In this document: positions 15,811 through 52,016 of the stretch, in pieces
Layout: every line of letters begins with the position of its first letter
Numbering within the stretch: the stretch's first letter is position 1
Assembly (NCBI GenBank): GCA_964482695.1
Contig: CAYZYP010000004.1
Coordinates: 1 to 62,385 of the forward strand
Length of the DNA: 62,385 nucleotides
From: an uncultured Gammaproteobacteria bacterium
Lineage (GTDB): Bacteria > Patescibacteriota > Patescibacteriia > Magasanikbacterales > GWA2-37-8
Direction of reading: 5' to 3'
Program-made: the position numbers and the translations under genes
The notes under the pieces: generated by a model
Seen by the model: the letters and a program-made list of their open reading frames with translations, nothing else
Database searches by the model: none
What the model was told of the DNA's origin: nothing

Positions 15811-16317
15811 ATGCTTAAGCAAAAAGTAGATTTTAGAGGTTTTACGTTAGTAGAACTGCTAATAGTAATCGCCATCATCGCTATATTGGCGTCAGTGGTT
15901 TTTGTGGCGCTTGATCCATTGACCAGATTTAGAGAGGCGCGTGACTCTAGAAGATGGGCTGATATTTCATCATTGGTTAATGCTGTTAAAGTAGATCAGG
16001 TAGACAATGGTGGCTCGTATTTAACCGCAATAGCCAATATGACTTCTGGTACTGTCTATATGATAGGAACAGCCACTACTGGCTGTGATGACCAAAATAC
16101 TTATTGTGATACTGCGGTCACTAGCGATACTGCCTGCGTCGATACGACGGGATTAGTAACCGAAGGCTATTTGGGATCAGTGCCAATTAGCCCCAATGGC
16201 GCTGGTTCTTGGACAGCTTCTATTACTGGCTACACCTTACAGCGTTCTTCATCCGGGATCATTACCGCCCGCTCCTGTGAATCGGAAAATACCACCGAGA
16301 TTTCATTGTCTAGATAA
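15811..16317 (+). CDS. type IV pilin (probable major pilin)
   Basis: 'FRG|FTLVELLIVIAIIAILASVVFVAL', 168 aa, several Cys in the C-terminal half, and a strong terminator immediately after. Confidence 0.8.
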   Translation: MLKQKVDFRGFTLVELLIVIAIIAILASVVFVALDPLTRFREARDSRRWADISSLVNAVKVDQVDNGGSYLTAIANMTSGTVYMIGTATTGCDDQNTYCDTAVTSDTACVDTTGLVTEGYLGSVPISPNGAGSWTASITGYTLQRSSSGIITARSCESENTTEISLSR

Positions 16318-16340
16318 AAAAGTCAGTATACGGAAATATA

Positions 16341-16370
16341 AAAAAACCTCTCTGGAAAAGAGAGGTTTTT
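16341..16370. terminator. bidirectional rho-independent terminator
   Basis: A6-ACCTCTCT-GGAAA-AGAGAGGT-T5, between convergent genes. Confidence 0.8.
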
Positions 16371-16378
16371 CGTAATTT

Positions 16379-16588
16379 TTAGAGTTTTTCTATATTGCCA
16401 TCAGAACCAATCCTAATCGCGCCTCTTTGTTGCTTTTCTTCAGTAGGGATAGTTGGCTCTTCTGGCGGTAGTGGTGGTGGCACTTCAATCTGTGGTTGAG
16501 GTCGTTCTTCTTCTCGTCTTGGCGGTATCCAAGTTTCTACTGGTTTCCATTTTGGTTTCCATGGTGGCGGTATTTTAACTTCTCCCAT
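16379..16588 (-). CDS. small proline-rich protein (uncertain)
   Basis: 69-aa ORF 18 nt downstream of the PEBP gene on the same strand. Pro/Glu-rich and low complexity, so it could be non-coding. Confidence 0.35.
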   Translation of the reverse strand: MGEVKIPPPWKPKWKPVETWIPPRREEERPQPQIEVPPPLPPEEPTIPTEEKQQRGAIRIGSDGNIEKL

Positions 16589-16606
16589 ATATATTAAAAA
16601 TTAAAA

Positions 16607-17368
16607 TTATTTAGCGTATTTTCCCATTAAACTTGTTTGTGAAAGTATGTGTCCTTGCATAGCCGCTTCAATGCTTGCTTTGGTAGCAGACGAACTAAGC
16701 GAAAGAGTAGTATCTAGAGCGTAAATTTTAAAGTAGTAGCGATGAGTGCCACTAGGCGGGCAAGGGCCGCCATAACTGGCATTGCCCCAACTATTAGTCC
16801 CTTGAGTTCCACTAGGCACGCTGTTTTTGCTAATGACAGTAGTTTTTGGGTCTATGTTAAACACCACCCAATGTACCCACGTGCCATTTGGCGCGTCTGG
16901 GTCGTCCATAATAAGAGCCAAACTTTTTGTTGTTTCTGGCACATTGGCAATATTTATTTGTGGATTAGTGTCAGAAGCGCTGCAAGTATATTCCGCGGGT
17001 ATATTATTTCCATTGATAAATGCTGGACTAGTTATTTGCATAGGTTTTGGTTGTGGTTTAGGAGTTGGTGTTGGTTCTGCCTGTTTGGTTGGTTGAGTCG
17101 TTGTTTTTGTCGGTTCTTTGGCAACATTTTGTGTGTCACCATCTGTTTTGTTTTCTATTGCTTTTACTTCTGGAGCGGAAGTGGTAGCGATAATTACGGT
17201 TGCCGCCAGTTTCTCTGGTTTGTCGGTAGAATTTTCTGTTGCTTCCACATTGGTAGTTGGTTGATTGAAATTGCTTTCAATCTGTTTATTTTTGGCACAG
17301 CCGGCGGAAATAGATATCAAAGCGATAGCCACCAGAAGAATAATTATTCCTATTTTTTTTTGGCGCAT
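16607..17368 (-). CDS. PEBP/YbhB-YbcL family lipoprotein
   Basis: Start taken at 'MRQKKIGIIILL...ISAGC' (lipobox). The C-terminal 'DPDAPNGTWVHWVVFNI...GGPCPPSGTHRYYFKIYALD' is the PEBP signature. Confidence 0.8.
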   Translation of the reverse strand: MRQKKIGIIILLVAIALISISAGCAKNKQIESNFNQPTTNVEATENSTDKPEKLAATVIIATTSAPEVKAIENKTDGDTQNVAKEPTKTTTQPTKQAEPTPTPKPQPKPMQITSPAFINGNNIPAEYTCSASDTNPQINIANVPETTKSLALIMDDPDAPNGTWVHWVVFNIDPKTTVISKNSVPSGTQGTNSWGNASYGGPCPPSGTHRYYFKIYALDTTLSLSSSATKASIEAAMQGHILSQTSLMGKYAK

Positions 17369-17521
17369 AGTTGTTAAGATTATTAAATTAATTCTTAACA
17401 TGTATTCTACTTTAATTTTAGATTATGTCTAGTGATAGGCTGTGAATAGTATTTGTTTGTTAGTTAATAATAAATAGGTTATAATATATTAAATTTTAGA
17501 TAATTTAAAATAGACTATAAT

Positions 17522-17944
17522 ATGTGGTTATTTTACGCTTTTTTATCAGCTATTACCGCCGCTTTGGTGGCAATATTCGGTAAATTAGGATTAAAAAATA
17601 TTGATTCAACCTTGGCCACTACCGTCCGTTCTATTATTATGGCGTTATTTTTGGTTATTACTACTTTATTTCTTAAAAAATGGCAAGGGTTTACCTTGCA
17701 ATCTTTTAGTGGTAAAGATTGGTTGCTTATTTCTTTGGCCGGCATTTGTGGAGCTTTGTCTTGGTTATTTTATTTTTTTGCTCTTAAAACCGGTTTGGCT
17801 ACCAAAGTTGTCGTTATTGATCGTTTAAGTTTGGTGTTTGTGATAATTTTAGCGGCTTTGTTTTTGGGTGAAGCTTTGGGCTGGAAAACAGTTGTTGGGG
17901 CGCTCATGATGATCGGTGGCGCGATTTTAATTTCGTTAAAGTAG
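17522..17944 (+). CDS. EamA/DMT-like small membrane transporter
   Basis: 140 aa with 4-5 TM segments and a single EamA-type repeat. Confidence 0.65.
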   Translation: MWLFYAFLSAITAALVAIFGKLGLKNIDSTLATTVRSIIMALFLVITTLFLKKWQGFTLQSFSGKDWLLISLAGICGALSWLFYFFALKTGLATKVVVIDRLSLVFVIILAALFLGEALGWKTVVGALMMIGGAILISLK

Positions 17945-17953
17945 TAAAAAAAT

Positions 17954-18730
17954 ATGCAACAAGTTTATAATCAATTAATTAAGTTTATGGTGACATCCGG
18001 TAAAAGACTAGCTAAAAGAGCCGGTAAAATAGAAGATATTGGAGTAACTAAAAAATATTTGACAGAAGAAGATATAAAAGTAGAAAGAGGATTTAAAGAG
18101 ATTATCAAAAAAGGATTTCCAACCCATAAATTTTTTGCCGAAGAAGAAAATGATAATTTTTTACAATCTGATGATGTTTGGGTTTGCGACCCCATCAGTG
18201 GTACCAGAACTTTTATAAAAGGACTCGCGCATTATGGCATGGTAATTTCCCATATACACAAAGGCGAGACGGTTTTTGCGGCTGTTTACGATCCCTCTGT
18301 AGATGATTTATATACTGCTTATAAAAATAAAGGCACTTACCTTAATAAAAACAGAATAAAAATCATTGATTCTAATCTATCTAAGCCAAAAATAGTTTTT
18401 CATCCATCTTTAGTTTGGGAAGATAATCAGCCAGACGCGACAAGAGAAATATTTGAGAAACTAACTAAATTTAAGTTATATAGGACGTATAATTCCCAGG
18501 CTATTAATTATTGTCATATGGTAAGGGGTATTTATGATGGAATAGTTTTATTAGCTAAAGATAGTTTTGTTGATTTTGCCGCTTCGTTAATTGTAAGAGA
18601 GGCTGGTGGTAAATTTACTAATTTAAATGGTCAAACAAATATAAATTCTAGCGATAGAGTATTTATAGCTGGGAGTGATTCAGTTTATAAAATACTTAAA
18701 CAATTAGTTGATAGTGTTTTAAAAAAATAA
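17954..18730 (+). CDS. inositol monophosphatase-family phosphatase
   Basis: 'FFAEEE' and 'WVCDPISGT' match the IMPase metal-binding motifs. Confidence 0.8.
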   Translation: MQQVYNQLIKFMVTSGKRLAKRAGKIEDIGVTKKYLTEEDIKVERGFKEIIKKGFPTHKFFAEEENDNFLQSDDVWVCDPISGTRTFIKGLAHYGMVISHIHKGETVFAAVYDPSVDDLYTAYKNKGTYLNKNRIKIIDSNLSKPKIVFHPSLVWEDNQPDATREIFEKLTKFKLYRTYNSQAINYCHMVRGIYDGIVLLAKDSFVDFAASLIVREAGGKFTNLNGQTNINSSDRVFIAGSDSVYKILKQLVDSVLKK

Positions 18731-20653: not shown

Positions 20654-23038
20654 TTATAACTGTCTGATAAGTTCGTAATTCGGTAAATACCTAACTTCAT
20701 ATTTTTGCAAGTCGTCTAAATACGGTAAGTCAGCAATGGATATTTTGCCGATATATAAGTTTCGTAAGCCATCCGATAAGTGTTGTTTTATAAAATCAGT
20801 TACCTGCAGATAACCATTAAAATAAACAATATCTCGAGTAAAAGCAATTTTTTTGTTAGTATCTACCAAACCACGTTTTGCTTTTAAACAGGTTATCCAA
20901 GCTGTTTCATCTGTTAGTTTGTAATTATCTTTTAAATAATGAAATAATTCAACAAATGACATTTCGTTTGCCAGATAAACACCAATAGTTCTTAAAGCTG
21001 GCCAAATAGATTTCTCTCCCAAAGCAATATTAAGTTGGTTTTGATTAAAAATCGCTAAACCCTCTTCGGTGGTTAAATAATCAGTAGTACCTTTTTCAAA
21101 TATTTTATATTTTTGTAAACTGCCGTTTTCTAGACGGTAAATATGAGTGCAAATTTCATGAACAATAATAGCTTTTAACCTATTTTCAGAAAAACAACAG
21201 CCTTCTCGCAAAAAGATGGTCCCATTTTTGCTTACAGCTATTTCTGCTATGCGATCGGTAACTAGTTTAATTTTCCATTTGGTTAATTTTTGCTCTGCCA
21301 AAAAATTTTCTATTTTTTTAACAATCGTTTTATTATTTAATTCTTTGCTGTCATCTTCGTAAATGGGGTGTTCGTGAATATAACGAATAGCTTTGTCGTA
21401 TAACATGCTGTCTGCTTGGCCATATAGTTTAACAGAGGCGGTTTGTAAGCCAACGGGGTCGTTAACAGATTCTATAATATCAAGTTTAGCTCGTAATTCC
21501 GCTATTTTTTTAAGATATATTTTGGCCAAAGGATGTTTGAAATCAATTGGCAATGATTTAAGCTCTCTTCTGAATTGGGCGACATCGGCGTGAATGGGGC
21601 GGTAAAAGAAACGCGGTGAATATATCGGATGGCGAAAAAATTCTTCTTTTTCTTTATCTAAATTAGTTGGGCGTAAAGCGCCAATAACGTGAATTTTGTT
21701 TTCTATGTTTCCCAACTTTTTGTCAACATTTTGAATAATTTTTTCGTCAATATCGTGTTTGGTTTTAACTGCGGAAAGATTTTTTTTATCTATATTTTGG
21801 TTAAGATTAAGATCAATTAAAAAATCTTGTAAATATTTACCGGTTAAGATAGCTTGATATTTTTCTTGTCGCAGGTCAGCAAATTTAAAAGGCAAAACAA
21901 GTCTTTTGTTTTTTAATTTTATTTCTATTGTTTTATCCTCATTATCCAGATCGTTTAAAGAGTAATCTATCAAAACTTGTTCGGCGTGCGGGTCTATTTT
22001 GAAAATTACATTACTATGTTTAGTGTTTAAAATATCAATAGGTTCATAAAGGCCAACAACAGGTTTCTCGGTCTTTTTTTCTTCTTTTTCTAATGGGATA
22101 TTGGCGCTAAATAAAGTTTGACTAATTTCTACTCCTTTTTCTGGTGTTGGAACTTTTAAATCAGTCACTTTTTTGAGACGATTTTTAAGCAGCACCTGAT
22201 TAGCTATTTGGATAGCTAATCCAGCGCGTGCGTTTAGTTCTAATATTTTTACGCCACTGTTAGTTATAGCCAAATCTACCGCCAAAAAACCTATTTGGCT
22301 GGCATGTTGCGTTTTGGTAGCCGTTAATAATAATTGAGTCCAATCAGGAATCTGTATATTTTTAATTGGTTCTCCGTTTGGTAATTTTTTAATAAACTTA
22401 TCATAATGTACCGCGTAAGTGGCTCGACCGCTAGCGATATCAATGCCTACGCCCACAGCCCCTAAATGTAAATTGGCCTTGCCATTTGATTCGGTTGTTG
22501 GCAAGCGCAACATAGCAATTACTGGCACGTAGTTAAAAACGATTACTCGCACGTCTGGCAAGCCGTAATCAACATAGCGTTTAAAATAATCGTGTATTAC
22601 AAGCATTTCTTCTATAATTATTTGGTCACCTAAGCCAGAAATAGCGTAGCGGCCATCTAAAATAGAAACCATGTGGCGGTATAAATTTTTCCAATCTAAT
22701 TCTTTGCCATTAATATCAATAAAATTATGTTTATTTTTTTCTTTTATTAACAAAATTCCTTCACCGCCATAACCATGATTAGGCTTGATAACAAAATTAA
22801 CAGGTAGAGAATTGGGATTAAAATTCTTAAGTTCCTGATAGTTTTTAATAATAGTATAAATTTTGGCCACTCCCAAACCCCTGGAACTTAAATAATTTTT
22901 AGTAAAAATCTTGTCATCGGCGAATTTTTTGTTAGTTTTGGAATTATAACGATTGACAAACAAAAGATTGCGGGCGTTCATGCCAAGAATGCCAGAAGCT
23001 TTTTCTAAAAAGGATAAAGGATGTTTGATTAGTTTCAT
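20654..23038 (-). CDS. fusion protein: RimK-related ATP-grasp ligase (N-terminal) plus DUF1704/QEGLA-motif (MATCAP-like) metallocarboxypeptidase (C-terminal)
   Basis: N-terminus 'GILGMNARNLLFV...VIKPNHGYGGEGI...LAVDLAI...ILELNARAG' is ATP-grasp-like. The C-terminus has H-E-I-C-T-H (21143-21160) and 'TTEEGLA' about 25 residues later. Confidence 0.75.
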   Translation of the reverse strand: MKLIKHPLSFLEKASGILGMNARNLLFVNRYNSKTNKKFADDKIFTKNYLSSRGLGVAKIYTIIKNYQELKNFNPNSLPVNFVIKPNHGYGGEGILLIKEKNKHNFIDINGKELDWKNLYRHMVSILDGRYAISGLGDQIIIEEMLVIHDYFKRYVDYGLPDVRVIVFNYVPVIAMLRLPTTESNGKANLHLGAVGVGIDIASGRATYAVHYDKFIKKLPNGEPIKNIQIPDWTQLLLTATKTQHASQIGFLAVDLAITNSGVKILELNARAGLAIQIANQVLLKNRLKKVTDLKVPTPEKGVEISQTLFSANIPLEKEEKKTEKPVVGLYEPIDILNTKHSNVIFKIDPHAEQVLIDYSLNDLDNEDKTIEIKLKNKRLVLPFKFADLRQEKYQAILTGKYLQDFLIDLNLNQNIDKKNLSAVKTKHDIDEKIIQNVDKKLGNIENKIHVIGALRPTNLDKEKEEFFRHPIYSPRFFYRPIHADVAQFRRELKSLPIDFKHPLAKIYLKKIAELRAKLDIIESVNDPVGLQTASVKLYGQADSMLYDKAIRYIHEHPIYEDDSKELNNKTIVKKIENFLAEQKLTKWKIKLVTDRIAEIAVSKNGTIFLREGCCFSENRLKAIIVHEICTHIYRLENGSLQKYKIFEKGTTDYLTTEEGLAIFNQNQLNIALGEKSIWPALRTIGVYLANEMSFVELFHYLKDNYKLTDETAWITCLKAKRGLVDTNKKIAFTRDIVYFNGYLQVTDFIKQHLSDGLRNLYIGKISIADLPYLDDLQKYEVRYLPNYELIRQL

Positions 23039-23050
23039 ATTTAAAGCGGG

Positions 23051-24598
23051 CTATTCTTCGGCGTGTTCTCTAAACAAGCTTTTAAATCTTAAATATTCGC
23101 TTAAACGTAAACCGCTAAATTTACCAATTAATAAAATTAACAGCAAAGGAATGAGTATTAGTTCGGGCCAAGACATTACTAAATTATTAAAAGATGTCCA
23201 ACTAATTAGATAATAACAAGCTGTTACAACAATTAAGGTTTCCAGCACTCCAAAAACAGCCCCGCGAAAACCTTCTTCGGATTGGGCGGCCATAAATTTT
23301 TCGGCCACGCTAGACATTACCAACATTGGAAAAATGCTTACCGACAAATTTACAGACAAGCCAAAAAATAAAACCAACCAGACAACAGTTAAAAAAGACA
23401 AACTAATAATGCTCAAATTTAGAGCCACCTTGGATAAATAAAGCAGTTCAAATTTATTTAGAATATATTTGACAATATAGCCGATTATTACCGCGAACAG
23501 AAAAGTAATAATGCCAAACCAAATACCAAGAATATAAAATGAAGCTGCCGTAATTACCGGAGTATAAATTCCAAAAGTGGAAAGGCCGATAATTTGACGA
23601 AAAAATACTACTACGCAAGCCAAAAATGGTATGAGTAGAATTAAATAAATACTATTTCCAGAAACATCTTTAGCCACAAAACTAGTTATCAGGTTTGATA
23701 AAACAAGAAAATTTGACTTTTTTCCTCGTTCATCAATAACTTTATATTCAACACCCCTGTTTTTTAATGTGTCAGCGGTTTTGGAATAATCTTTAATACT
23801 TAGAAGAGGGGAAAGAGCTTCTTGGCGGGTTAGTAGAATATATTTAGGCTTGATTATTTTAAAAGACTGGTAAGCAAAGTTAGAAGCAACATCCATGTTA
23901 CCATCACTAATGGTGACGAAAAATTTATTTTTAATAATTTCTTTATCTTCATCGGTAGCGTTTTGCCAGAAACGAGTAAAAGCCTGCAAGCCACTAAAAG
24001 ATTTAGTATAGAAGATAAGAACGTCGGTATCTGTTATGTAGTTACTGATTTTAGCGATTTCTTTAACCAGATTGTCCTCGGTTAAAAATTCTGTTAAGAA
24101 CCCCCCACCGCCTTCTTTGATAGTAGAAAGAACCTGCAAAGCGACGCCGTTCTCTGCGGCTTGTAATTTAATTTGATTAACCTCTCCTTCAATTTTTCTA
24201 TCAATAATCAGCAACGCTCTTTTATCATAAACAAATATTTGCTGGCTAACAGAACTGGATTCGTTATTTTGAGTTATGGTTAGCATGACGTTATATTTGC
24301 CAATTTTTTTATACTGGTGCACCGCGTCTTTGCCAACGGCTTGAACATTATCGCCAAAATCCCAAATATATTTTGGCGTGCCAGTTGGTAAAATACTAGA
24401 ATTAACAGCGTCAAAAATTACTTTTTTTTCAACTTGTACAAATTCCTCGGCTTTAATTTTTGCCGTTAATTTGTCAATTTTGGCTTCCTCACCAATGTTT
24501 TCGTTGCCAGTGCTGGTGGTTGCTTTTGTGTTGTCTTGGCCATATACAGGTGTCGCTAAAAATAAAAAAATTAGGACAAAAATTATTACTTTTTTCAT
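23051..24598 (-). CDS. secreted PKD-domain protein anchored by a C-terminal 7-TM module (the 7TM type usually fused to an inactive transglutaminase)
   Basis: Signal peptide, 'PKYIWDFGDNVQAVGKDAVHQYKKIGKYNVMLTI' (PKD), seven hydrophobic segments, and the ending 'GKFSGLRLSEYLRFKSLF'. Confidence 0.7.
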   Translation of the reverse strand: MKKVIIFVLIFLFLATPVYGQDNTKATTSTGNENIGEEAKIDKLTAKIKAEEFVQVEKKVIFDAVNSSILPTGTPKYIWDFGDNVQAVGKDAVHQYKKIGKYNVMLTITQNNESSSVSQQIFVYDKRALLIIDRKIEGEVNQIKLQAAENGVALQVLSTIKEGGGGFLTEFLTEDNLVKEIAKISNYITDTDVLIFYTKSFSGLQAFTRFWQNATDEDKEIIKNKFFVTISDGNMDVASNFAYQSFKIIKPKYILLTRQEALSPLLSIKDYSKTADTLKNRGVEYKVIDERGKKSNFLVLSNLITSFVAKDVSGNSIYLILLIPFLACVVVFFRQIIGLSTFGIYTPVITAASFYILGIWFGIITFLFAVIIGYIVKYILNKFELLYLSKVALNLSIISLSFLTVVWLVLFFGLSVNLSVSIFPMLVMSSVAEKFMAAQSEEGFRGAVFGVLETLIVVTACYYLISWTSFNNLVMSWPELILIPLLLILLIGKFSGLRLSEYLRFKSLFREHAEE

Positions 24599-24753
24599 AT
24601 TATATTTAGTATTTTAATTGTTTGATAGATCTATTATATATGGATTTAGAAAAAAAACAAATTTATCTCTTTTTAATTTGCTTCTGTTTCTAGTTAGTAT
24701 TATAATAATACTATTATATTTAGGTACTCTACAAATAATATGAGCGAAGAATT

Positions 24754-27410: not shown

Positions 27411-28748
27411 ATGTCAGCAACAAACTCAGTAACCGATAAAAATTTACCATTAGAAAAAAAATCATTTGTCACTGCTGGCGCGGTTGTTAATTTTCGCGAT
27501 AGCTGGCGGATTTTTAGAATTATCACTGAATTTGTGGAAGGCTATCAATTTTTGGGAGATTTGACAAAAGAAGTTACCATATTAGGTTCGGCGCGTATTC
27601 CAAAAAATAATAAATATTATAAAATAGCCGAAGATCTGGGATATTTACTAGGTAAAAATGGTTTTACCACTATTACCGGCGGCGGTCCGGGCATCATGGA
27701 AGCCGCCAATAAAGGTGCTTATGAGGCGGGTGGGGAATCTATTGGCTTAAATATTCAATTACCACACGAACAGCGAGTAAATCAATACGTAAAAAAGTCG
27801 GTTGGCTTTTATTATTTTTTTAGTCGCAAAGTAATGTTAACATCACCAGCCAACGCCTTTGTTTTTTTCCCAGGCGGTTTTGGCACGTTAGACGAATTTT
27901 TTGAAGTAGTTGATCATATAGAATTAAAACAAATGCCCAAAGTCCCAATTGTTTTGGTCGGCAAAGAATTTTGGCAGCCTGTTATAAATTTTTTACGGCA
28001 AAAATCAATTAAAGAAGTTGGCTCTGTGCCAGAAGAAGAAATAAATAGCTGGCAAATGGTAGAAACATCAGCCGAGGCTTTTGAATGTGTAAAAGAAACA
28101 GCCGATCGCCCTAATACCTGTGAAGCAGGGTCACTCAATCCGCATTGTCAAGGTGGTTTGGATTGGCGTATTTTTAGAATAATGGCCGAATTAGTAGAAG
28201 GTTTTGAATTTTTAACAAAATTAACCAACGATGTAACTATTTTAGGCACCAAAAGTATTCATTTTGATTCGCCTTATTATCAGTCAGCTTACGAAGTTGG
28301 TAAAATTTTGGCGCAAAATAAAATTACTACTATTACTGGCGGCGGTCCGGGCATTATGGAAGCCGCCAATAAAGGCGCGTTTGAGAACGGTGGCGAAAGT
28401 ATAGGGATAAATATGCGTTTTGAGCGAGGTGAACGAATAAACAGCTATGTTAGTAAATCTATTGGTTTTTATTTTTCTTTTGTCCGCAAGCTGATTATTT
28501 CCGCTCCTTCGCGTGCTTTTGTTTTTTTCCCAGGCGGTTTTGGTACGCTTCATCAATTGTTTGAATTGCTGACTTTGTTGGAAACCAAAAAAATTGAATC
28601 AGTGCCTATTTTGCTTTATGGCAAAGAATTTTGGCTACCTTTGCTTAATTTCATCCACACTTTGCGTTTTGATTTTAAAACTATTAATCAATCGGACGAA
28701 GAACTGTTAAAGGTGATAGAAAAGCCGGAAGAGGTTTTAAACATTTAG
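27411..28748 (+). CDS. tandem-duplicated LOG-family (TIGR00730-like) protein
   Basis: Two ~220-aa repeats each carry 'ITGGGPGIMEAANKGA' and 'FFPGGFGTL'. The nucleotide repeats are offset by exactly 660 nt. Confidence 0.8.
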   Translation: MSATNSVTDKNLPLEKKSFVTAGAVVNFRDSWRIFRIITEFVEGYQFLGDLTKEVTILGSARIPKNNKYYKIAEDLGYLLGKNGFTTITGGGPGIMEAANKGAYEAGGESIGLNIQLPHEQRVNQYVKKSVGFYYFFSRKVMLTSPANAFVFFPGGFGTLDEFFEVVDHIELKQMPKVPIVLVGKEFWQPVINFLRQKSIKEVGSVPEEEINSWQMVETSAEAFECVKETADRPNTCEAGSLNPHCQGGLDWRIFRIMAELVEGFEFLTKLTNDVTILGTKSIHFDSPYYQSAYEVGKILAQNKITTITGGGPGIMEAANKGAFENGGESIGINMRFERGERINSYVSKSIGFYFSFVRKLIISAPSRAFVFFPGGFGTLHQLFELLTLLETKKIESVPILLYGKEFWLPLLNFIHTLRFDFKTINQSDEELLKVIEKPEEVLNI

Positions 28749-28764
28749 TCTAATATATTTTAGT

Positions 28765-30876
28765 ATGCCTCCAGAATCAGCAACACAACGTTTATCATAT
28801 TTAGAAGATCCTTCACAGGCCGATCCAGAAGAACATGAAAATAAAGAAGCCGAGCTAGGAGAAACTTTTTCTGAATTTGAAAAAGATAACCCAGGTCATT
28901 TTGACGCCAATGAATTATTAGCTGATTTTAAAAAAAGCAGCGAAGAAAAAGAAAGAAAAGAAAGCTGCCGAAGATCAATCAGAAAAATGTACGGCAACCC
29001 TTTTTATTTAGAAACTCTATACGATCGTTTGGAACATTTGCAAGGTTTAGACGAAGAAAATGAAAAGTATATAAATGAAATAAAGATAACAATTGACTTG
29101 CTAACGTCAGAGACTATAGAAAAAGAACAGCTTGGTTTAGGATTACATCAAAAAGGAAAAAAAGAAGGAGTAGATAATATTTCAGAAAGGGATTTGCAGA
29201 CAATGGATCGTTGGTTAGAACTTTATGCTAATAATAATTATCGAGACAGAATAGGTAAATTAATAGGATTGTCAGTAACAAAGGCAAAAACTTCGCGTAA
29301 TTATATTTCTAGACTATATGTTTTGGCTTATGGAGTGGTAAGAACAAGCGACCCAGAAATAATAAAAGCTGGTTTAACTTTTTTAGCTCGCGAAGAAGAA
29401 AATTTACCAGGTGATTTAACTGATATTGACAGATATATTGCCGCGACTTTAGAACCAGACAATGATGTGACAAAAATGAGTTTTGATACTGATGCGGTAT
29501 TTACTGCTTTTGCTAGTAGATATTTACCAGAAGGTATTAGGCGTTTTAAAGAAAAGTCAGCAGATTTATCCGATAGATTGTTAAAGTCAGGAAATGTTTT
29601 GGATACAAGGTTACATACCGGTCGTTTGATGCAAGAGGTTGCTACCGCGCAACTGGAAGGTAGGATAGAAGATCCAAGAATCCAGAAGATAATAGCTTTG
29701 ATGAAATTTAACGATCAAATAGGTGGTGTGGTTATTGCCGGAAGAAGTGATGAAAATGATCCAAGCAGGTTTGACTTTTCTACTGTTGAAGAAGCTCCTA
29801 CTCCTAGCGGTAGAGTTAATGTCGTAGGCTCCGAAGAAGATTTTGAGAATTTTATACCAGCTGGCGCGACCACAAGGCAAAGAGAAATTGCTATCAAGGA
29901 ATTGAGAAAAAAATTACTGACAATGGAAGAATATCCAATTATTCTTGTTACTCAAGAAAGTGAAATGACTAATTTGCGCCGAGATTTTAGCAGTAGAATG
30001 GCAGCTGTGAGAACCGCGGAAAACGGCGCTGTTTATCGGGCAGTATATTTACCTAGACAAGGAGAGTCTAATTTACAAATACCGTCGAATTTAGAGCAGA
30101 GACGAAAAATAGCACAAAGGGGTTTTAATGATGAAAAAGCCGCGAACAAGGTAATACGAGAAGATACTATATTTGAATTAATGGCTTTATTATTTCCTAA
30201 TGTTACCGCGGAAAAGAGAACTAATTTGGTATCAAGAATCGTAGAGTTAAAAAGACAGTTGCGAGAAGATATTAGACAATTAATTAGTCCGCGAGGCGAC
30301 CATATTGAAATAGAGGATGAATTATTATCTAGAGAATTAGGAATTACCTCAATAACTTTTAAACCAACCACTTCGGTTGTAGATTTAGATATTATAATTA
30401 GAATTGGTAACGTAGATTGCATGTTGCATATAGACGATCAATGCAATCTTAAAAGAGCGGAAACAGATCCTAAAAAAATTAATCGTCCTCTAAGGGTAGT
30501 GCCCGATACTCATTTATTAATTCAAGAGTTAGTTTACTCTCATTTGCAGGCTATTCTTTGTAAAGAGACGGTATCTGTTGGTAGTAGCACTGAACGTGGA
30601 TCAGGATTAGAAGAAAAAGTTGTGAGTCGACGAGCCCACCTAAGGCGTTTACCAGTTGGCCAGCGTTGCTCCGAACAGCAGATAAGGTTAGCAAGCGAAT
30701 TTTGTGATCTGCTTGCTTTTAATCGTAGCCGTGGTTTAACTGGAGAAACCGAAGAAACCAGGCAATTTACTTTTGTTAAGGCAGTAGAAGTAGAATATAT
30801 TGATGAAGAGTCCAAAACACAAGATCCAATTAGAACTAGAATCAAAGATGCTTCAGAATTGAAAAACGTATTATAA
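28765..30876 (+). CDS. large hypothetical protein with an acidic N-terminus
   Basis: 703-aa uninterrupted ORF, 16 nt after the LOG gene and 7 nt before lgt. No motif recognised. Confidence 0.5.
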   Translation: MPPESATQRLSYLEDPSQADPEEHENKEAELGETFSEFEKDNPGHFDANELLADFKKSSEEKERKESCRRSIRKMYGNPFYLETLYDRLEHLQGLDEENEKYINEIKITIDLLTSETIEKEQLGLGLHQKGKKEGVDNISERDLQTMDRWLELYANNNYRDRIGKLIGLSVTKAKTSRNYISRLYVLAYGVVRTSDPEIIKAGLTFLAREEENLPGDLTDIDRYIAATLEPDNDVTKMSFDTDAVFTAFASRYLPEGIRRFKEKSADLSDRLLKSGNVLDTRLHTGRLMQEVATAQLEGRIEDPRIQKIIALMKFNDQIGGVVIAGRSDENDPSRFDFSTVEEAPTPSGRVNVVGSEEDFENFIPAGATTRQREIAIKELRKKLLTMEEYPIILVTQESEMTNLRRDFSSRMAAVRTAENGAVYRAVYLPRQGESNLQIPSNLEQRRKIAQRGFNDEKAANKVIREDTIFELMALLFPNVTAEKRTNLVSRIVELKRQLREDIRQLISPRGDHIEIEDELLSRELGITSITFKPTTSVVDLDIIIRIGNVDCMLHIDDQCNLKRAETDPKKINRPLRVVPDTHLLIQELVYSHLQAILCKETVSVGSSTERGSGLEEKVVSRRAHLRRLPVGQRCSEQQIRLASEFCDLLAFNRSRGLTGETEETRQFTFVKAVEVEYIDEESKTQDPIRTRIKDASELKNVL

Positions 30877-30883
30877 TTTCTTT

Positions 30884-31684
30884 ATGATCCCATACTTTCA
30901 ATACAATTCTTTCCTCTTTGGTCCAATCGCCATTCAAGTATGGGGGATTTTTGTTTCTTTGGGGCTTTTGGTGGCAATAATATTTGCCTATCGGTTAGCG
31001 CGTAAATATTTTTTATCAGGCGAAGTGATGCTGGATTTGGCTATTTGGGTTTTAATAGGCGGGTTTTTAATGGCACGCGCCTTTCATGTGATTTTCTACG
31101 AACCAACTTACTATATTGTTAATCCATTGGATGTAATTAAATTTTGGCAAGGCGGCGCTTCTTCTTTGGGTGGGTTTATTGGCGCTGGCTTGGCCGCTTG
31201 GTTGTTTTTTAAAAAACGGCATTTTAAGTTAAAAGAAGCATTGCCTTATTTAGATATTGGCGTTTTAAGTTTGTGGTTGGGATGGGGGATAGGTCGCATT
31301 GGTTGTTTTATGATTCACGATCATCCCGGCCATTTGACCAACTTTTTTTTAGCAGTTAATTTTTCTGGCGGCGCCAGATACGATTTAGGCTTGTTGGATT
31401 CGTTGCTAGGTTTTTTACTATTTACTATTTACTATTTACTATTTACTCGTTTGATAAGAATTCGCTGGGGGTTAGTCGCCCTACTATCTTTTATGGATTA
31501 CGCCTTGGTAAGATTTTTATTTGATTTTCTTCGCGCTACTGATTTACCACAAAGTGACATTAGATATTGGCTACTCACTCCGGCGCAGTGGGGGATGACA
31601 GTTTTATTTTTTATCTTGACCATTATCCTAATTTACGGTATAAAAGTACAGAACGTTGCTAAGAAAGAAGTTAAAAGTATATAA
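30884..31684 (+). CDS. lgt: prolipoprotein diacylglyceryl transferase
   Basis: 266 aa, multi-TM. 'WGIGRIGCFMIHDHPG' corresponds to the Lgt 'GRxGNFxN' region. Confidence 0.85.
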   Translation: MIPYFQYNSFLFGPIAIQVWGIFVSLGLLVAIIFAYRLARKYFLSGEVMLDLAIWVLIGGFLMARAFHVIFYEPTYYIVNPLDVIKFWQGGASSLGGFIGAGLAAWLFFKKRHFKLKEALPYLDIGVLSLWLGWGIGRIGCFMIHDHPGHLTNFFLAVNFSGGARYDLGLLDSLLGFLLFTIYYLLFTRLIRIRWGLVALLSFMDYALVRFLFDFLRATDLPQSDIRYWLLTPAQWGMTVLFFILTIILIYGIKVQNVAKKEVKSI

Positions 31685-47715: not shown

Positions 47716-49524
47716 TTATACAATATACTTCAACAATTTCCAACCCAAGTATAGTCCAAGAATAAGGGCGCCAGAACCAGAGGTGGCGGCTACTTTTTTG
47801 GCAGTAGAACGAGCGGATGAAGTTGGTATTAATTCAGTAGGGGTTTCTTTTGCAAGTTGTTGTTTTGCTTGCCCGCTATTTGTGTAAGTAAAATTATTTT
47901 TATCCTCAGTTGGTTGTTGTTTTTTTGTTTTACTAGTTTCAGTTATTTTTGTTAATTTGGGTTTTGCTATTTCTTTGGTACTGTTTGCGACGTTCAATTT
48001 TATTTTTTCAATCACAGTAGATGTAGTGGTTGTACTAGTAGTCGCGACGCTACTTGAAGCAGTGATTGATATTAAAATAGTGCTAGTTGTTGTGATGGCA
48101 GTTGACGAAGAAACAGTAGAGGTTGTAAAAATAATTGTTGTTGTAGGTATGGTTACCGTTGATGTAGTTGAACTTGTGTTATTGTTTAATTGTTCAAAGT
48201 TGGGATTGGCGCCGGAATATTGATTTTGTGAAAAACGCGGTTCAATTGGCCAACTTTGGCCTAATAACGCTGGTACACCATGCTTGGTGGCAAACCAATC
48301 TGTTGTGCCAGGCGCCCAGTTTGGTTCGTAATAGCCACTGTTATTTAAAGTCTCTATTAATATATTCCATGGATTTTTATTATCTTTAAACCAATCTGTC
48401 TGGCTTTCGTTTAATGAGCTTATACCCATTATAGCCCAGCTAGTGGTTAAAGCATCACTACTAAAATAACCCCAGCCGCCATCGTCTAACTGTTGTGTTT
48501 TTAAATAATTTTTTGCTTTTGTGAAAATTGTTTCATCTAAGTTTATTCCTTTATTTCGCGCGTATTTGAGAGTGTTAACAGCGCCGCCGGTAATATCAGC
48601 GCCAGGCCAGCCATCCCAAGTAAAAGCGCCATCTACAGTTTGATCCTCTGTGATAGTTTTTATTATATCTTGAATAATATTTTCGGCAATGTCAGTGCCG
48701 GCAGAAAGAAGCGCTATTAGTCCAAAAATATCGTCGTTTATACCTCTTTGTCCATAAAGATTATTTAAATAACACTTGCTTTTAATGTCGTTGATTATTT
48801 GTCGCATTAGGTTATCCGAGGTATCTAGGCCAGAAGTATATAGGGCTAGATAATGGCGTGGATAAGCCGCGCAGATATTTATGTCGCTAGCATCGGTAAA
48901 TTGATAATTTTTAGCATATTCAAACAAAGATAATCCGTCGTATTTTTTTATTTCCGCAGGATTTTGTCCAGCGGCCACAAAAGACATTATAGACCAGTCG
49001 GTAATACCAGCGTCAATAATTTTTCCGGTTTTATCTTGTTGGAATTTTAGATAGTTTAAAATTTTATTTACTGCTTGATTTATTTGTTCGCTGGATATTA
49101 TAGTTGGCGCGGTAGAAGAAGTTGTTGCGGCGGTATCGGTAGTGTTAGTGTCAATAGGAGTGGAAGTGGTAGCGGGCGAACCGCCAGTAGAATGGTTAGT
49201 GTTAGAGTTAGTTTGGCCTTGATTAGTAGTAGTGGAGTTGGTTGAAGTGGTGTTTGTTGTGGTACTTGTTGTGCTAGGTAAAGTGCTACTAGTAGAGGTT
49301 ATGGTGGTTGACGACGCGGTCGCGGTGGTTGTAGCTGTCACAGTTGTTGTATTTGTAGATATGGTAGAGGTAACAGTCGTGCTAGTTGTGGCAATGGTTG
49401 TGGTCGTGGCAGTGTTAACAGTAGAAGTTGTAGAGGAAGTGGTTTCTGCGTTAGAAAACGATACAAAAAACAAACAGCCGGCAAGAACAATGGTAGCGAA
49501 TAATAAATTATTGGTAGTTTTCAT
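47716..49524 (-). CDS. surface-anchored alpha/alpha-toroid (prenyltransferase/squalene-oxidase-repeat-like) protein with Thr/Ser-rich stalks
   Basis: Signal peptide, two Thr/Ser low-complexity regions, the repeat signature 'QQLDDGGWGYFSSDALTTSWAIMG', and a C-terminal TM anchor. Confidence 0.6.
   Translation of the reverse strand: MKTTNNLLFATIVLAGCLFFVSFSNAETTSSTTSTVNTATTTTIATTSTTVTSTISTNTTTVTATTTATASSTTITSTSSTLPSTTSTTTNTTSTNSTTTNQGQTNSNTNHSTGGSPATTSTPIDTNTTDTAATTSSTAPTIISSEQINQAVNKILNYLKFQQDKTGKIIDAGITDWSIMSFVAAGQNPAEIKKYDGLSLFEYAKNYQFTDASDINICAAYPRHYLALYTSGLDTSDNLMRQIINDIKSKCYLNNLYGQRGINDDIFGLIALLSAGTDIAENIIQDIIKTITEDQTVDGAFTWDGWPGADITGGAVNTLKYARNKGINLDETIFTKAKNYLKTQQLDDGGWGYFSSDALTTSWAIMGISSLNESQTDWFKDNKNPWNILIETLNNSGYYEPNWAPGTTDWFATKHGVPALLGQSWPIEPRFSQNQYSGANPNFEQLNNNTSSTTSTVTIPTTTIIFTTSTVSSSTAITTTSTILISITASSSVATTSTTTTSTVIEKIKLNVANSTKEIAKPKLTKITETSKTKKQQPTEDKNNFTYTNSGQAKQQLAKETPTELIPTSSARSTAKKVAATSGSGALILGLYLGWKLLKYIV
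47995..48190 (-). repeat. second low-complexity Thr/Ser-coding tract (approximate limits)
   Basis: Encodes 'TSSTTSTVTIPTTTIIFTTSTVSSSTAITTTST...'. Confidence 0.6.
49090..49445 (-). repeat. low-complexity Thr/Ser-coding tract (approximate limits)
   Basis: Runs of ACN/AGY/TCN codons encode 'TTSSTTSTVNTATTTTIATTSTT...'. Confidence 0.6.
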
Positions 49525-49556
49525 AATTGAAATGAGTGAAAGAAAAACGAATGAAA

Positions 49557-50141
49557 TTATATCTTAATATATTTCCAAGTGATGATATCATTAGATCTGA
49601 TAATATAACTAGATATACCTACTTTGGCAGATTCATCATTAATATAGTAAACCCAGTACTTATTTTGTTGGCCATTTTTAATACCATTAATTTCTTCTAT
49701 CAAAAATCCTAAACTTCCATAATCTTTGCTTTTAAAATCAAGGCTAGCGTTTTGTTGTAACAACAGCATGGCGTTATAGGCTGTTGTGGTAGCTGTAAGC
49801 TGGAGATTATAAGTTGTCTCTGCTATTTTTATTTTAGAATTCAAGCAATTTTGTTGGCAATTAACAAATATTTTATTTTCATCTTTGTTTTTTGCCGCTG
49901 GCTTTTTGTTGGTTGGTGAAGACGATGTTATTGTTTGTTGTTTGATTTCAGCGGTATTTTTGGTTGGTATTTTTTGAGTTGTAGTAGTAGAGTTATTGGT
50001 ATTATTTGGTTCGTTGGTTTTGTATTCTGTGTTTAAAGGGGATGTAGTAGCCAAAGCATACCAGCCACTAATAGCTGTTGTTAATAACAGGGTTATAAAT
50101 AAAATTAAATGATATTTGTGTTTTTTAGCAAATTCGCGCAT
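49557..50141 (-). CDS. DUF4430-type (transcobalamin/intrinsic-factor beta-domain-like) secreted protein
   Basis: N-terminal TM/signal. The C-terminal 'GSLGFLIEEINGIKNGQQNKYWVYYINDESAKVGISSYIIRSNDIITWKY' matches the DUF4430 pattern. Confidence 0.7.
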   Translation of the reverse strand: MREFAKKHKYHLILFITLLLTTAISGWYALATTSPLNTEYKTNEPNNTNNSTTTTQKIPTKNTAEIKQQTITSSSPTNKKPAAKNKDENKIFVNCQQNCLNSKIKIAETTYNLQLTATTTAYNAMLLLQQNASLDFKSKDYGSLGFLIEEINGIKNGQQNKYWVYYINDESAKVGISSYIIRSNDIITWKYIKI

Positions 50142-50154
50142 AAAATACTTGTTT

Positions 50155-50184
50155 AAAAATAAAATCTTCCCAAGTAGGAAGATT
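50155..50184 (-). terminator. riboswitch expression-platform terminator
   Basis: Minus strand reads AATCTTCC-TACTTG-GGAAGATT followed by TTATTTTT. It ends about 14 nt before the ATG at 50141. Confidence 0.6.
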
Positions 50185-50225
50185 AAAGATAAAAAATAAT
50201 CAGCATTTCCTGCTCGGAATACACA

Positions 50226-50319
50226 TATATTTGAAGACCGGACTTATTCTCCCGCCAAAGGCGGGGGACTTTACCGTTGCGGCACAGTGGAGGAATTTTA
50301 CCTCACTTCCACAAATATA
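50226..50319 (-). promoter_or_regulatory. cobalamin riboswitch aptamer (compact, class-II-like)
   Basis: Minus strand reads TATATTTG-[GTGGAAGTGAGGTAAAATTCCTCCACTGTGCCGCAACGGTAAAGTCC...AAGTCCGG...]-CAAATATA. GGAA...GGTAAAATTCC...CCACTG...ACGGTAAAGTCC resembles the Cbl core, closed by an 8-bp helix. Confidence 0.6.
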
Positions 50320-50337
50320 CGGATGAATTGTAATTCT

Positions 50338-50366
50338 AGTTTAATGAGTTTACTAGCGTCTGTCAA
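50338..50366 (-). promoter_or_regulatory. sigma70 promoter of the riboswitch operon
   Basis: On the minus strand: TTGACA (50366-50361), 17-nt spacer, TAAACT (50343-50338). Confidence 0.6.
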
Positions 50367-50442
50367 ACAGGGGTGTGGATAACATTAAATTATTTTTTCA
50401 CTTTTTTGTCAAAATAACCGTAAAAATTATAAAAATATGACT

Positions 50443-51162
50443 TTATTCTTTATATTTCAGTAACTCAGATATTGTAACAAAAATATAGCCTTTTTCTTTT
50501 AATCCGCTTATAATTTTTGGTAGGGCTTCTCTGTCTGATTCACAATTTTTTCCGCAAAAAGGATGAAGTAATATTATTGACCCTGGCCTGATATTTTCAA
50601 AAACATTTTTTACAATAAGATTTGTATTGTTAGAGAAATATGTATCTGGTTCTAAATTCCACATAATTGTCTTAATATTATTTTGGCTAAGATACCAAGG
50701 CAAACCAAATAATTTTTTACCATTTGGAGGGCGAAATGTAATTTCACCGGTGTATCCAGCATTGCGAATAAGCAAATCAGTCTTTTTTATTTCATTTTTA
50801 ATAAATGATTGGGATTTTAAAATAAAACGTTTATGTGAATATGAATGGTTTCCGAGTTCATTTCCTTGTTGGACAATCGCCTTGGCTTGATCGGGATAAT
50901 TTTCTAAAGATTGGCCAATAGCGTAAAAAGTAGCATGGACATTATTTTTTGATAATATTTTTAAAACCTCATTTGTATATTCTGTGGGTGCATCATCAAA
51001 TGTTAATGCCACAACTTTTTGATCAGTATTTACATGACTAATTAGGACTCCAAAAATTTGTAAAGTCCTTGATTCGCTTAGCTCAAATAACCCATAGACA
51101 ACCATTGCCAGTATAATCAACAGTAATGAGCTTGCTAAATATTTATTACAATTAATTTTCAT
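50443..51162 (-). CDS. membrane-anchored polysaccharide deacetylase (NodB homology domain)
   Basis: 239 aa with an N-terminal TM segment. 'LTFDDAP', 'HSYSH' and 'RPPNG' motifs seen. Confidence 0.85.
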   Translation of the reverse strand: MKINCNKYLASSLLLIILAMVVYGLFELSESRTLQIFGVLISHVNTDQKVVALTFDDAPTEYTNEVLKILSKNNVHATFYAIGQSLENYPDQAKAIVQQGNELGNHSYSHKRFILKSQSFIKNEIKKTDLLIRNAGYTGEITFRPPNGKKLFGLPWYLSQNNIKTIMWNLEPDTYFSNNTNLIVKNVFENIRPGSIILLHPFCGKNCESDREALPKIISGLKEKGYIFVTISELLKYKE

Positions 51163-52016
51163 TATTTCGTTGTTTGAAAATATTTATTTACGACTGCTTT
51201 CCAATCGTCAATTCGAGCATGGTTTTTTTTTGTTCTGCCTATAATTTTTAATAGTTGATCATACATTTGATTATCCTGCGTTTTTTTTAGCTTTAACAAA
51301 AACAAACGTAAGGGATCTTCACTACCTTGCACACAAGATGCCTTAAGCGCTCTAAAAAGTCCTTGGTCATCTGGACACTGCGCCCAGAGATAGTTAATCA
51401 TGTGACGTTCAAAGTAACCACTGTTTTCGATTTCTTTGAGTTCTTCGTCACTGAAAACCTTGTCATCTGCTGCAATCCAGTCTGTTACTGCCTCCCAAAA
51501 TAAAAAGCGTTGATTGTGATATTCTACCTCTTCAAAAACGCTAGGTACAGAAGATAAATCAACAGAATTAGTTTCGTCTCTGAATCTTTTAAATTTATAT
51601 CCGCCGACATAATCATAAAAAGTTTGCATATCTAATTTTCTCATTGGATCATGTGGCACAAAAACAGGTTTTGGTGTCATCAAATGCACAGACTCATGTA
51701 AGAGTGTATGTAAGGTGTTAGCACGGGACGACCCCATCATTACGATCGGGACACGTTTGACTTCTGTCTCACTGACCTCAAGACGCATGAGTCCGTCTGC
51801 GCCAGCATCTTTAGGGTTAGTTTTTGCGATTTCTGTCATTCGTTCAGGTGTAACGAATTGTATATTATTAATATCTAGCAATCTTTTTTCCAGCTCCGCA
51901 CTTTCTAAAACGTCACTAAAAATATCACGGAGTTCACGTCGCGCAATTATTTTGTATTCTGTTTGTTGTATTTCTATTTCGGCTGTTGTTTTATGTTCAG
52001 AATTTCGATTTTTCAT
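51162..52016 (-). CDS. hypothetical protein with an HExxH motif (possible metallopeptidase)
   Basis: 284 aa with 'TLLHESVHLM'. Its stop overlaps the deacetylase start (TAATG at 51160-51164). Confidence 0.5.
   Translation of the reverse strand: MKNRNSEHKTTAEIEIQQTEYKIIARRELRDIFSDVLESAELEKRLLDINNIQFVTPERMTEIAKTNPKDAGADGLMRLEVSETEVKRVPIVMMGSSRANTLHTLLHESVHLMTPKPVFVPHDPMRKLDMQTFYDYVGGYKFKRFRDETNSVDLSSVPSVFEEVEYHNQRFLFWEAVTDWIAADDKVFSDEELKEIENSGYFERHMINYLWAQCPDDQGLFRALKASCVQGSEDPLRLFLLKLKKTQDNQMYDQLLKIIGRTKKNHARIDDWKAVVNKYFQTTK

Follow-up and report, generated by a model that had tools for sequence, protein, structure and literature searches.

RimK adds a variable number of glutamates to the -EE C-terminus of RpsF (ribosomal protein S6), and RimB removes them (PMC12239564). 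In the rloABC system of Pseudomonas aeruginosa, described in 2025, RloA is a secreted retropepsin, RloB carries an inactive transglutaminase on a seven-transmembrane (7TM) module, and RloC is an ATP-grasp protein. Cells that lack all three RloA paralogues die in hypo-osmotic medium unless rloB or rloC is deleted as well, and RloA cleaves polyglutamate stretches of at least eight residues. In that study no genome-encoded polyglutamate candidate emerged, and the physiological substrate was not settled (PMC12239564). The carboxypeptidases TMCP1 and TMCP2, of the MATCAP family, cleave Tyr, Ala and Glu off the C-terminal ends of acidic tails and also shorten polyglutamate; TMCP1 does not process substrates whose penultimate Glu is exchanged for Asp or Gln (PMC10499314). 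Here we describe a two-gene module located at positions 20654..24598 of a 62,385-nucleotide stretch of patescibacterial DNA (contig CAYZYP010000004.1; the entire stretch is referred to as the window). An ATP-grasp ligase and a MATCAP-type carboxypeptidase are joined in one of its two polypeptides, and the gene for this fusion lies directly behind that of a 7TM membrane protein. A first-pass annotation of the window had proposed that the pair writes and erases peptide tails at the membrane, and had considered that no member of these families was characterized. The latter statement is outdated by the genetics of RloABC and the biochemistry of RloA (PMC12239564). The former remains the best reading and is now backed by an invariant glutamate at the C-terminus of the 7TM protein and by the deglutamylase activity of the MATCAP family (PMC10499314), with both activity and substrate in the module itself still read from sequence.

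In the reading that we favor, to which we assign a probability of about 40%, the ligase would extend and the MATCAP domain would trim a C-terminal glutamate tail, the likeliest acceptor being the tail of the 7TM partner itself. The end of the partner proved to be its most telling stretch. The membrane-partner gene (23051..24598, minus strand) encodes 515 residues, made up of a signal peptide, a PKD domain, an alpha/beta domain, the 7TM module and a Glu-ended tail. Its C-terminus reads ...RFKSLFREHAEE; the first-pass annotation had stopped at ...RFKSLF, six residues short of the true end. The predicted cytoplasmic tail (GLRLSEYLRFKSLFREHAEE; 23054..23110, minus strand) closes with the codons GAA GAA (23054-23059). 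We compared this end across a census of 80 loci, taken from a scan of one genome per species that covered ~20 kb per genome, the counts being phylogenetically non-independent. Glu is the last residue of all 73 7TM partners in the census, and in 64 it is preceded by a second Glu (-EE). The terminal run is one residue long in 9 partners, two in 43, three in 19 and four in 2, and the residues that precede it vary (EHAEE, KNIEE, EDSQE, RHIEE, HTGEEE). Two further partners of MATCAP fusions, from a search seeded with the 7TM module, both end in -EE and bring the total with Glu to 75/75. As controls, Glu is terminal in 1/120 proteobacterial RloB-type proteins, and among the 788 other open reading frames (ORFs) of at least 200 aa in the census loci, 33 (4%) end in E and none in EE. 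The Glu end is kept in locus L072, where the partner is a bare 270-aa 7TM protein devoid of an ectodomain.

The codons of the terminal glutamates vary synonymously (GAA 135, GAG 25), and the Glu end is kept in 10 loci in which the next gene starts 44-433 nt away; the terminal Glu is therefore no artefact of a ribosome-binding site. The related notion that these codons serve as the Shine-Dalgarno sequence of the next gene was rejected, as they are mostly GAA and persist at such gaps. The 7TM module was also searched against 1.84 billion cluster representatives. Glu was terminal in 76 of the best 150 matches, the remainder having mostly basic ends. Among the proteins that we sampled together with the enzyme encoded downstream, two with an -EE tail precede an ATP-grasp-MATCAP fusion, three with a basic or other tail precede an ATP-grasp-retropepsin fusion, two with an -EE tail (P0399 and P0340) likewise precede an ATP-grasp-retropepsin fusion, and a transglutaminase-7TM protein ending in ...AESNL precedes a plain ATP-grasp enzyme. 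P0399 and P0340 led us to reject the idea that the tail is exclusive to MATCAP systems. In these counts, which are likewise phylogenetically non-independent, the Glu tail is universal with MATCAP (75/75), is not confined to it, and is essentially absent where the peptidase is secreted.

The fusion-enzyme gene (20654..23038, minus strand) lies 12 nt downstream of the partner gene on the same strand and encodes a 794-aa protein, predicted to be cytoplasmic, with the order ATP-grasp ligase, degenerate retropepsin remnant, MATCAP carboxypeptidase. The two ORFs, their coordinates, the gap and all of the motifs quoted in the first-pass annotation are exact in the sequence. The same annotation regarded the fusion, and the PKD domain in place of the transglutaminase, as unusual, and this did not hold up: the fusion with its PKD-7TM partner is the standard architecture across Patescibacteria, not a rarity. 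A protein search with the fusion gave 2971 matches at E < 1e-5; the best 120 of these all have the same two-domain architecture at ~770-800 aa, and their source names, where they give a taxon, are all lineages of the Candidate Phyla Radiation (CPR). The fusion is a single intact ORF in 80/80 census loci, which span the Magasanik-, Parcu-, Kerfeld-, Uhr-, Peregrini- and Gracilibacteria groups and Altimarinota, with some records under other automatic labels. The PKD-7TM protein has 75 close relatives of identical architecture, and of the roughly 78 loci with upstream sequence, 73 have a 7TM gene immediately before the fusion on the same strand, usually at a gap of 0-20 nt. Clustering of the neighboring ORFs disclosed no third conserved gene and no separate substrate gene, the next best real cluster being present in 16 loci. 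In two of the loci where no 7TM gene adjoins the fusion, a very large secreted surface protein is encoded upstream of it: a 1047-aa subtilase with type IV secretion system pilin repeats (L043 1833-4976) and a 2293-aa protein with an SdrD-B-like domain (L052 3013-9894). We found no description of the fusion, of the retropepsin remnant or of the Glu-tail rule in the literature searched, and the genes stand in the databases under generic names.

The RloC/RimK-type ATP-grasp domain spans residues 13-296 (22151..23002, minus strand). PF14397 (ATPgrasp_ST) matches residues 23-292 with an E-value of 2.3e-57 and 194.7 bits, above its cut-off of 31.4, and TIGR02291 ("alpha-L-glutamate ligase-like") scores 253.1 bits (E 3e-75), below its equivalog cut-off of 314.2. 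The motifs are GILGMNARN at residues 16-24, KPNHGYGGEGI at 85-95 and ILELNARAG at 265-273. The sequence identity to RloC of Aeromonas and of Legionella is 38%. Searches of PDB sequences with this half returned chance-level matches only; it was the fold search with Foldseek that gave RimK (5zct, E 2.6e-8), in addition to cyanophycin synthetase and ArgX/LysX (~3e-8). Residues K85, E143, D255, E267, N269 and R271 are invariant in 80/80 aligned family copies. The predicted Mg-ATP site, D255...E267-x-N269-x-R271, lies on the ILELNARAG strand (22226..22276, minus strand); we take its four residues and the other invariant ligase residues to bind ATP and Mg by analogy with the ATP-grasp superfamily. 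With its motifs intact and its key residues invariant, the ATP-grasp half looks catalytically competent. The AlphaFold2 model of the fusion, built on 38 homologues, has a mean predicted local distance difference test (pLDDT) score of 86.

The MATCAP/DUF1704-type zinc-carboxypeptidase domain spans residues 439-790 (20669..21724, minus strand), as assigned by hidden Markov models (HMMs), by a PDB match and by fold. PF08014 (MATCAP) matches residues 466-788 (E 6.7e-47; 160.6 bits, above the cut-off of 27), and TIGR02421 (QEGLA) gives 176.2 bits (E 1e-51), below the cut-off of 338.65. With the scores of both TIGRFAM models below their equivalog cut-offs, we treat the two halves as family members and not as strict equivalogs. 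Human MATCAP (7z5g, 7z5h, 7z6s) was matched in the PDB at 2.7e-13 with the single sequence and at 5.6e-21 with the family profile. The best Foldseek matches were 7z5g and 7z6s (E 4e-12, TM-score 0.65 on the target), and the pLDDT exceeds 90 across most of the domain. The HExxxH zinc-binding and catalytic motif (HEICTH, with H627, E628 and H632; 21143..21160, minus strand) aligns with HEIGTH of human MATCAP. The sequence TTEEGLA follows at residues 656-662, 26 residues past H632, and within it the TEEGLA motif with the third metal ligand (the "EEG"/QEGLA motif; residues 657-662; 21053..21070, minus strand) aligns with the human TEEGLA. The EEG motif of the MATCAP family is described in PMC10499314. 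In each of the 78 copies that extend into this region, H627, E628, H632, E659 and G660 are unchanged, and E658 is replaced by Q in 9 copies. The MATCAP half also looks catalytically competent, and the relationship is at the family level: microtubule binding is not expected in a bacterium, and the domain is therefore a homologue of the MATCAP catalytic domain only.

The comparison with the tubulin cycle of TTL/TTLL ligases and MATCAP (7z5g, 7z6s; PMC10499314) is of note. The carboxypeptidases are homologous and share the HExxxH and EEG motifs as well as the fold; an ATP-grasp ligase opposes MATCAP in both, and the tubulin substrate is an acidic tail that ends in -EE(Y). The module differs in that it has no tubulin, its ligase is RimK/RloC-like and not of the TTL family (PF03133 gave a marginal match only, and on a relative), its writer and eraser are fused, and its candidate target is a membrane protein. 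The RimK/RimB pair resembles the module in the RimK-like ATP-grasp fold, in the opposition of ligase and peptidase, and in an -EE acceptor that matches the tail seen here. It departs from the module in that the latter belongs to the ATPgrasp_ST/TIGR02291 subfamily, has a membrane-protein partner, uses a metallo-carboxypeptidase within one chain and has a putative substrate.

Between the two catalytic halves lies a shortened, probably inactive retropepsin remnant of the RimB/RloA type (residues ~298-418; 21785..22147, minus strand), which is all-beta in the AlphaFold2 model. A profile of this region from the 80 fusions, aligned by hhalign with the retropepsins of ATP-grasp-retropepsin fusions and RloA, gave a probability of 99.0 and an E-value of 4e-18 over 120 columns. 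The aligned blocks ("AKID..." and "G(R/K)xL..FLID") flank the center of the barrel, and the central part itself is deleted, as seen in a large internal deletion in the alignment. In the window D-P-H stands in place of the catalytic D-T-G, and the motif positions that follow D349 vary across the family; the domain has neither the D-T/S-G motif nor the full-length barrel of the retropepsin-like RimB/RloA family (PF05618). By this alignment the middle domain is a degenerate, presumably dead retropepsin, and the architecture of the enzyme is ligase, retropepsin remnant, MATCAP. Its presence in the fusion leads us to conclude that MATCAP replaced the retropepsin of the Rim/Rlo systems, and the ancestry that the profiles indicate ties the module firmly to that lineage. 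As the pairing of ligase and peptidase was kept while the type of peptidase was swapped, from an aspartic endopeptidase to a metallo-carboxypeptidase, the two activities can be argued to act on one product.

A sister arrangement within CPR retains the retropepsin. ATP-grasp-retropepsin fusion genes (L087 4609-6006; L092 5010-6470; L096 2130-3593; L098 5076-6488) share with the module the PKD-7TM partner, the ligase family and the gene order, and their apparently intact retropepsin is homologous to the middle domain of our fusion. They are different in size (465-487 aa), in the DTGA motif that is kept in the copies read, in the absence of MATCAP and in the mixed tails of their partners. This sister pair was found repeatedly in a YebC-RuvC-[7TM]-[ligase] context, with RuvA next in L092 and L093.

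MATCAP homologues of proteobacteria stand in a different gene setting. The proteobacterial QEGLA proteins (TIGR02421) belong to the same MATCAP/DUF1704 family and also stand beside an ATP-grasp ligase, but this ligase is of the GshB clade, an N-formylglutamate-amidohydrolase (FGase) domain is present, a 7TM partner is absent, and the MATCAP is either unfused or fused to the FGase domain. In Photobacterium sp. DA100 (L081 5095-8089) and on pSymB of Sinorhizobium meliloti (L083 5388-9189), MATCAP is fused or adjacent to the FGase domain, with a GshB-like ATP-grasp beside it. The Photobacterium damselae genes annotated as GshB and as QEGLA-motif protein (RS17020 and RS17025, neighboring locus tags) respond to low salinity with 38- and 27-fold induction (PMC10308900); these genes may be homologues of the L081/L083 pair. 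On this basis one could suppose that the ligase of the module makes, and its MATCAP domain hydrolyses, some small amide or peptide (a gamma-glutamyl compound, for instance, or a precursor peptide of the wall) in the service of envelope or osmotic homeostasis. The salinity response of the Photobacterium genes would suit such a role, as would the envelope and hypo-osmotic phenotypes of the Rlo mutants (PMC12239564) and the presence of uppP as the divergent neighbor in the window. The ligase at hand, however, falls in the RimK/RloC clade and not in that of GshB, the neighbors of the module are not conserved, and both the Glu tail and the retropepsin ancestry would be left unexplained. We regard small-molecule metabolism as quite improbable for the module.

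The membrane partner was examined domain by domain. Its extracellular PKD domain (residues 46-124; 24227..24463, minus strand) is matched by PKD_4 over residues 46-119 (E 1.3e-12), and in Foldseek it superimposes on the PKD domain of ColG (E 9e-7, TM-score 0.88), with the beta-sandwich fold of the PKD family (PF18911/PF00801). The extracellular alpha/beta domain that follows (residues 126-310; 23669..24223, minus strand) alternates strands and helices in the AlphaFold2 model; it gave weak Foldseek matches only and is assigned to no family, and no homology to the inactive transglutaminase of RloB was detected. Fold search and profile-profile comparison led us to reject the view that the ectodomain is a divergent inactive transglutaminase. 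The 7TM_transglut module has seven helices (residues 311-496; 23111..23668, minus strand) and is matched by PF14402 over residues 311-508 (E 2.8e-33). The NCBIfam RloB model covers only this part of the partner (residues 316-510), and hhalign against RloB proteins aligned the 7TM module alone (probability 99.6) and left the ectodomain unaligned. The AlphaFold2 model of the partner has a pLDDT of 81 and a predicted TM-score of 0.69.

From the signal peptide, the seven helices and the K/R-rich loops and tail, we infer a topology with the N-terminus outside and the C-terminus in the cytoplasm. The same topology is indicated by a plasmid of Halobacterium sp. DL1 (CP007061.1; L086 5164-6918), on which a 584-aa ORF joins the C-terminus of a 7TM module to the N-terminus of an RloC-type ATP-grasp domain. 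This ORF lacks an ectodomain, has transposases on either side and carries no gene annotation in the record. As a Rosetta-stone fusion, it argues that the 7TM module and the ATP-grasp domain act together, and that the C-terminus of the 7TM module lies on the enzyme (cytoplasmic) side of the membrane. The classical order retropepsin-RloB-RloC was confirmed on a Legionella plasmid and, by ORFs and sequence features, in a record of Aeromonas caviae. Set beside RloABC, the module has a ligase homologous to RloC, a 7TM module homologous to that of RloB, the same gene order of 7TM then ligase, and the same pairing of ligase with peptidase. In contrast to RloABC, it has no separate secreted retropepsin gene, retaining the internal degenerate remnant only; its peptidase is a fused, cytoplasmic zinc carboxypeptidase of the MATCAP type; its ectodomain consists of PKD and alpha/beta domains, where RloB has the inactive transglutaminase; and the tail of its 7TM protein ends in Glu, whereas RloB tails do not. 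The first-pass assignments thus stand at the level of domains: sequence, catalytic motifs and predicted fold agree on the RimK-related ATP-grasp and DUF1704/MATCAP regions, PF08014 and the PDB match to human MATCAP confirm that DUF1704 is the MATCAP family, and HMMs, the AlphaFold2 model and Foldseek agree on a partner composed of signal peptide, PKD, a ~190-aa domain and 7TM module. The claim that the ATP-grasp and 7TM proteins are conserved neighbors was likewise upheld, by 73 census loci, by Legionella and Aeromonas, and by the Halobacterium fusion.

The Halobacterium fusion bears as well on whether the enzyme modifies the 7TM protein at all. A different cytoplasmic protein, such as ribosomal protein S6, could be the substrate, the 7TM protein serving only to recruit or to regulate the enzyme. 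The ligase is RimK-related, the enzymes of the MATCAP family act on protein C-termini (PMC10499314), and the fusion occurs in five loci with no adjacent 7TM gene, all of which would be in line with such a substrate. No candidate substrate gene is conserved nearby, however, and none of the 788 background ORFs, within the ~20 kb covered per genome, ends in -EE. The near-obligate pairing of the two genes, together with the covalent joining of 7TM and ligase in Halobacterium, points to the membrane protein instead, and we consider another protein substrate improbable.

The 7TM module itself could be a conduit. In such a case, the ATP-grasp domain would manufacture a free anionic peptide (for example, poly-alpha-glutamate), which the 7TM protein would export or present and the PKD and alpha/beta domains would handle at the surface; MATCAP would limit its length or recycle it in the cytoplasm, and the -EE tail would be a tether or a pseudo-substrate that keeps the enzyme at the membrane. 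Several observations are in accord with this. RimK also makes free poly-alpha-glutamate, RloA cleaves polyglutamate of at least eight residues, and in P. aeruginosa the loss of RloA is toxic only with RloB and RloC present (PMC12239564), a sign that some product gets to the periplasm. Across lineages, the 7TM core is retained and the ectodomains are swapped or missing, as would be expected of a conduit. The RloB proteins have no Glu tail, and the ancestral system can therefore do without a tail acceptor. The location of the active peptidase is at odds with this proposal, however, as it is cytoplasmic and fused to the ligase, and an exported product would be out of its reach. The fold search with the 7TM module returned neither a transporter-like fold nor a solved homologue, and free-peptide synthesis by itself would leave the invariant terminal Glu of the 75/75 MATCAP-linked partners unexplained. 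We hold a free peptide to be a possible product of the module, though an unlikely one.

The tail of the 7TM partner thus remains our preferred acceptor, and the events can be envisioned as follows. The 7TM protein would reside in the cell membrane, with the PKD and alpha/beta domains outside and the Glu-ended tail in the cytoplasm, where the fusion enzyme would dock on it. At the expense of ATP, the ATP-grasp domain would attach amino acids to the C-terminal carboxylate (alpha-linked glutamate being the most probable), and the MATCAP domain would take the added residues off again, one at a time. The last Glu after a non-Glu residue would constitute an irreducible primer. Ligation and trimming, both carried by a single chain in the manner of other bifunctional switch enzymes, would between them set the length of the tail and make it a reversible mark, and the state of the membrane protein would plausibly tip the balance. 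The published chemistry of RimK/RimB, of RloA and of the MATCAP family fits this model of addition and trimming by analogy.

Several observations weigh against this proposal. A free Glu tail is missing from the RloB proteins and from the Halobacterium fusion; the ancestral ligase therefore needs no such tail, and the 7TM tail is not a universal substrate of the ligase family. If it is the substrate here, this would be a derived feature. An -EE end was found in 2/5 sampled CPR partners of ATP-grasp-retropepsin fusions and is thus not restricted to MATCAP, and in five loci (L043, L046, L051, L052, L063) the fusion has no adjacent 7TM gene. The tail is short, at ~6-9 residues past the last helix. 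A writer and an eraser in one chain would, if left unregulated, cycle futilely, and we identified no regulatory element. The literature searched yielded no biochemical data on any ATPgrasp_ST/RloC ligase. A bolder version of the proposal is a bacterial "tail code", in which the bifunctional ligase-MATCAP enzyme would reversibly set the Glu-tail length on a seven-helix surface receptor, an extracellular signal would be converted to tail length, and the arrangement would be a forerunner of the tubulin tyrosination/glutamylation cycle. We put this forward tentatively, as a conjecture that we doubt more than we believe.

The 7TM gene and the divergent uppP/bacA gene are separated by an AT-rich interval (24599..24753), the presumed promoter region of a two-gene operon. 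Scans for promoters and terminators performed no better than on shuffled sequence, and as the consensus scan equalled shuffled sequence, no promoter was assigned in this interval. At the other end, a gene for a PolB-exonuclease-like protein is convergent with the module. The other neighbors in the window include PilM, an EamA transporter, GatA, Lgt and tRNA-Ser, and have the appearance of ordinary CPR housekeeping DNA. An anti-phage defense system was considered and rejected, as PADLOC matched neither protein to any of its defense-system models.

The gene lgt recurs within a few kb of the module in several loci that otherwise differ (window 30884-31684; L096 5120-5914; L098 7946-8566; L099 7673-8455), and genes for LysM-M23 peptidases recur in L096 and L098; these recurrences may be due to chance or to a weak envelope-related linkage. 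Upstream of lgt in the window, a 703-aa ORF (28765-30876, plus strand) has no Pfam match at E-values up to 0.001 and is preceded by a LOG-family gene. The ORF at 27411-28748 (plus strand, 445 aa) has two LOG/"lysine decarboxylase-like" (SLOG) stretches and looks like a tandem LOG protein. Elsewhere in the window, two long ORFs overlap on opposite strands (16607-17401, minus; 16742-17377, plus), with an unusual AT skew of -0.21 over 16001-18000. The GC skew changes sign at ~48000-52000, where the cumulative skew peaks near 50 kb, possibly because the genes change strand or because of a replication landmark.

What the CPR variant brings to systems of the RloB/RloC type is a specific candidate substrate, namely the -EE tail of the partner itself. 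If the proposal is true, this tail would be the first physiological protein substrate named for the RloC ligase family, and its bearer, to our knowledge, the first membrane protein among the glutamylated proteins of bacteria. Among bacterial proteins, glutamylation is so far known for RpsF and SdeA (PMC12239564), and the bearer of the tail would be the third. It would also follow that MATCAP carboxypeptidases were paired with ATP-grasp ligases on acidic tails before eukaryotes, which bears on the origin of the tubulin code. In the Patescibacteria, whose genomes are reduced and whose surface biology is little charted, few membrane-associated enzyme systems are conserved, and the module is one of these.

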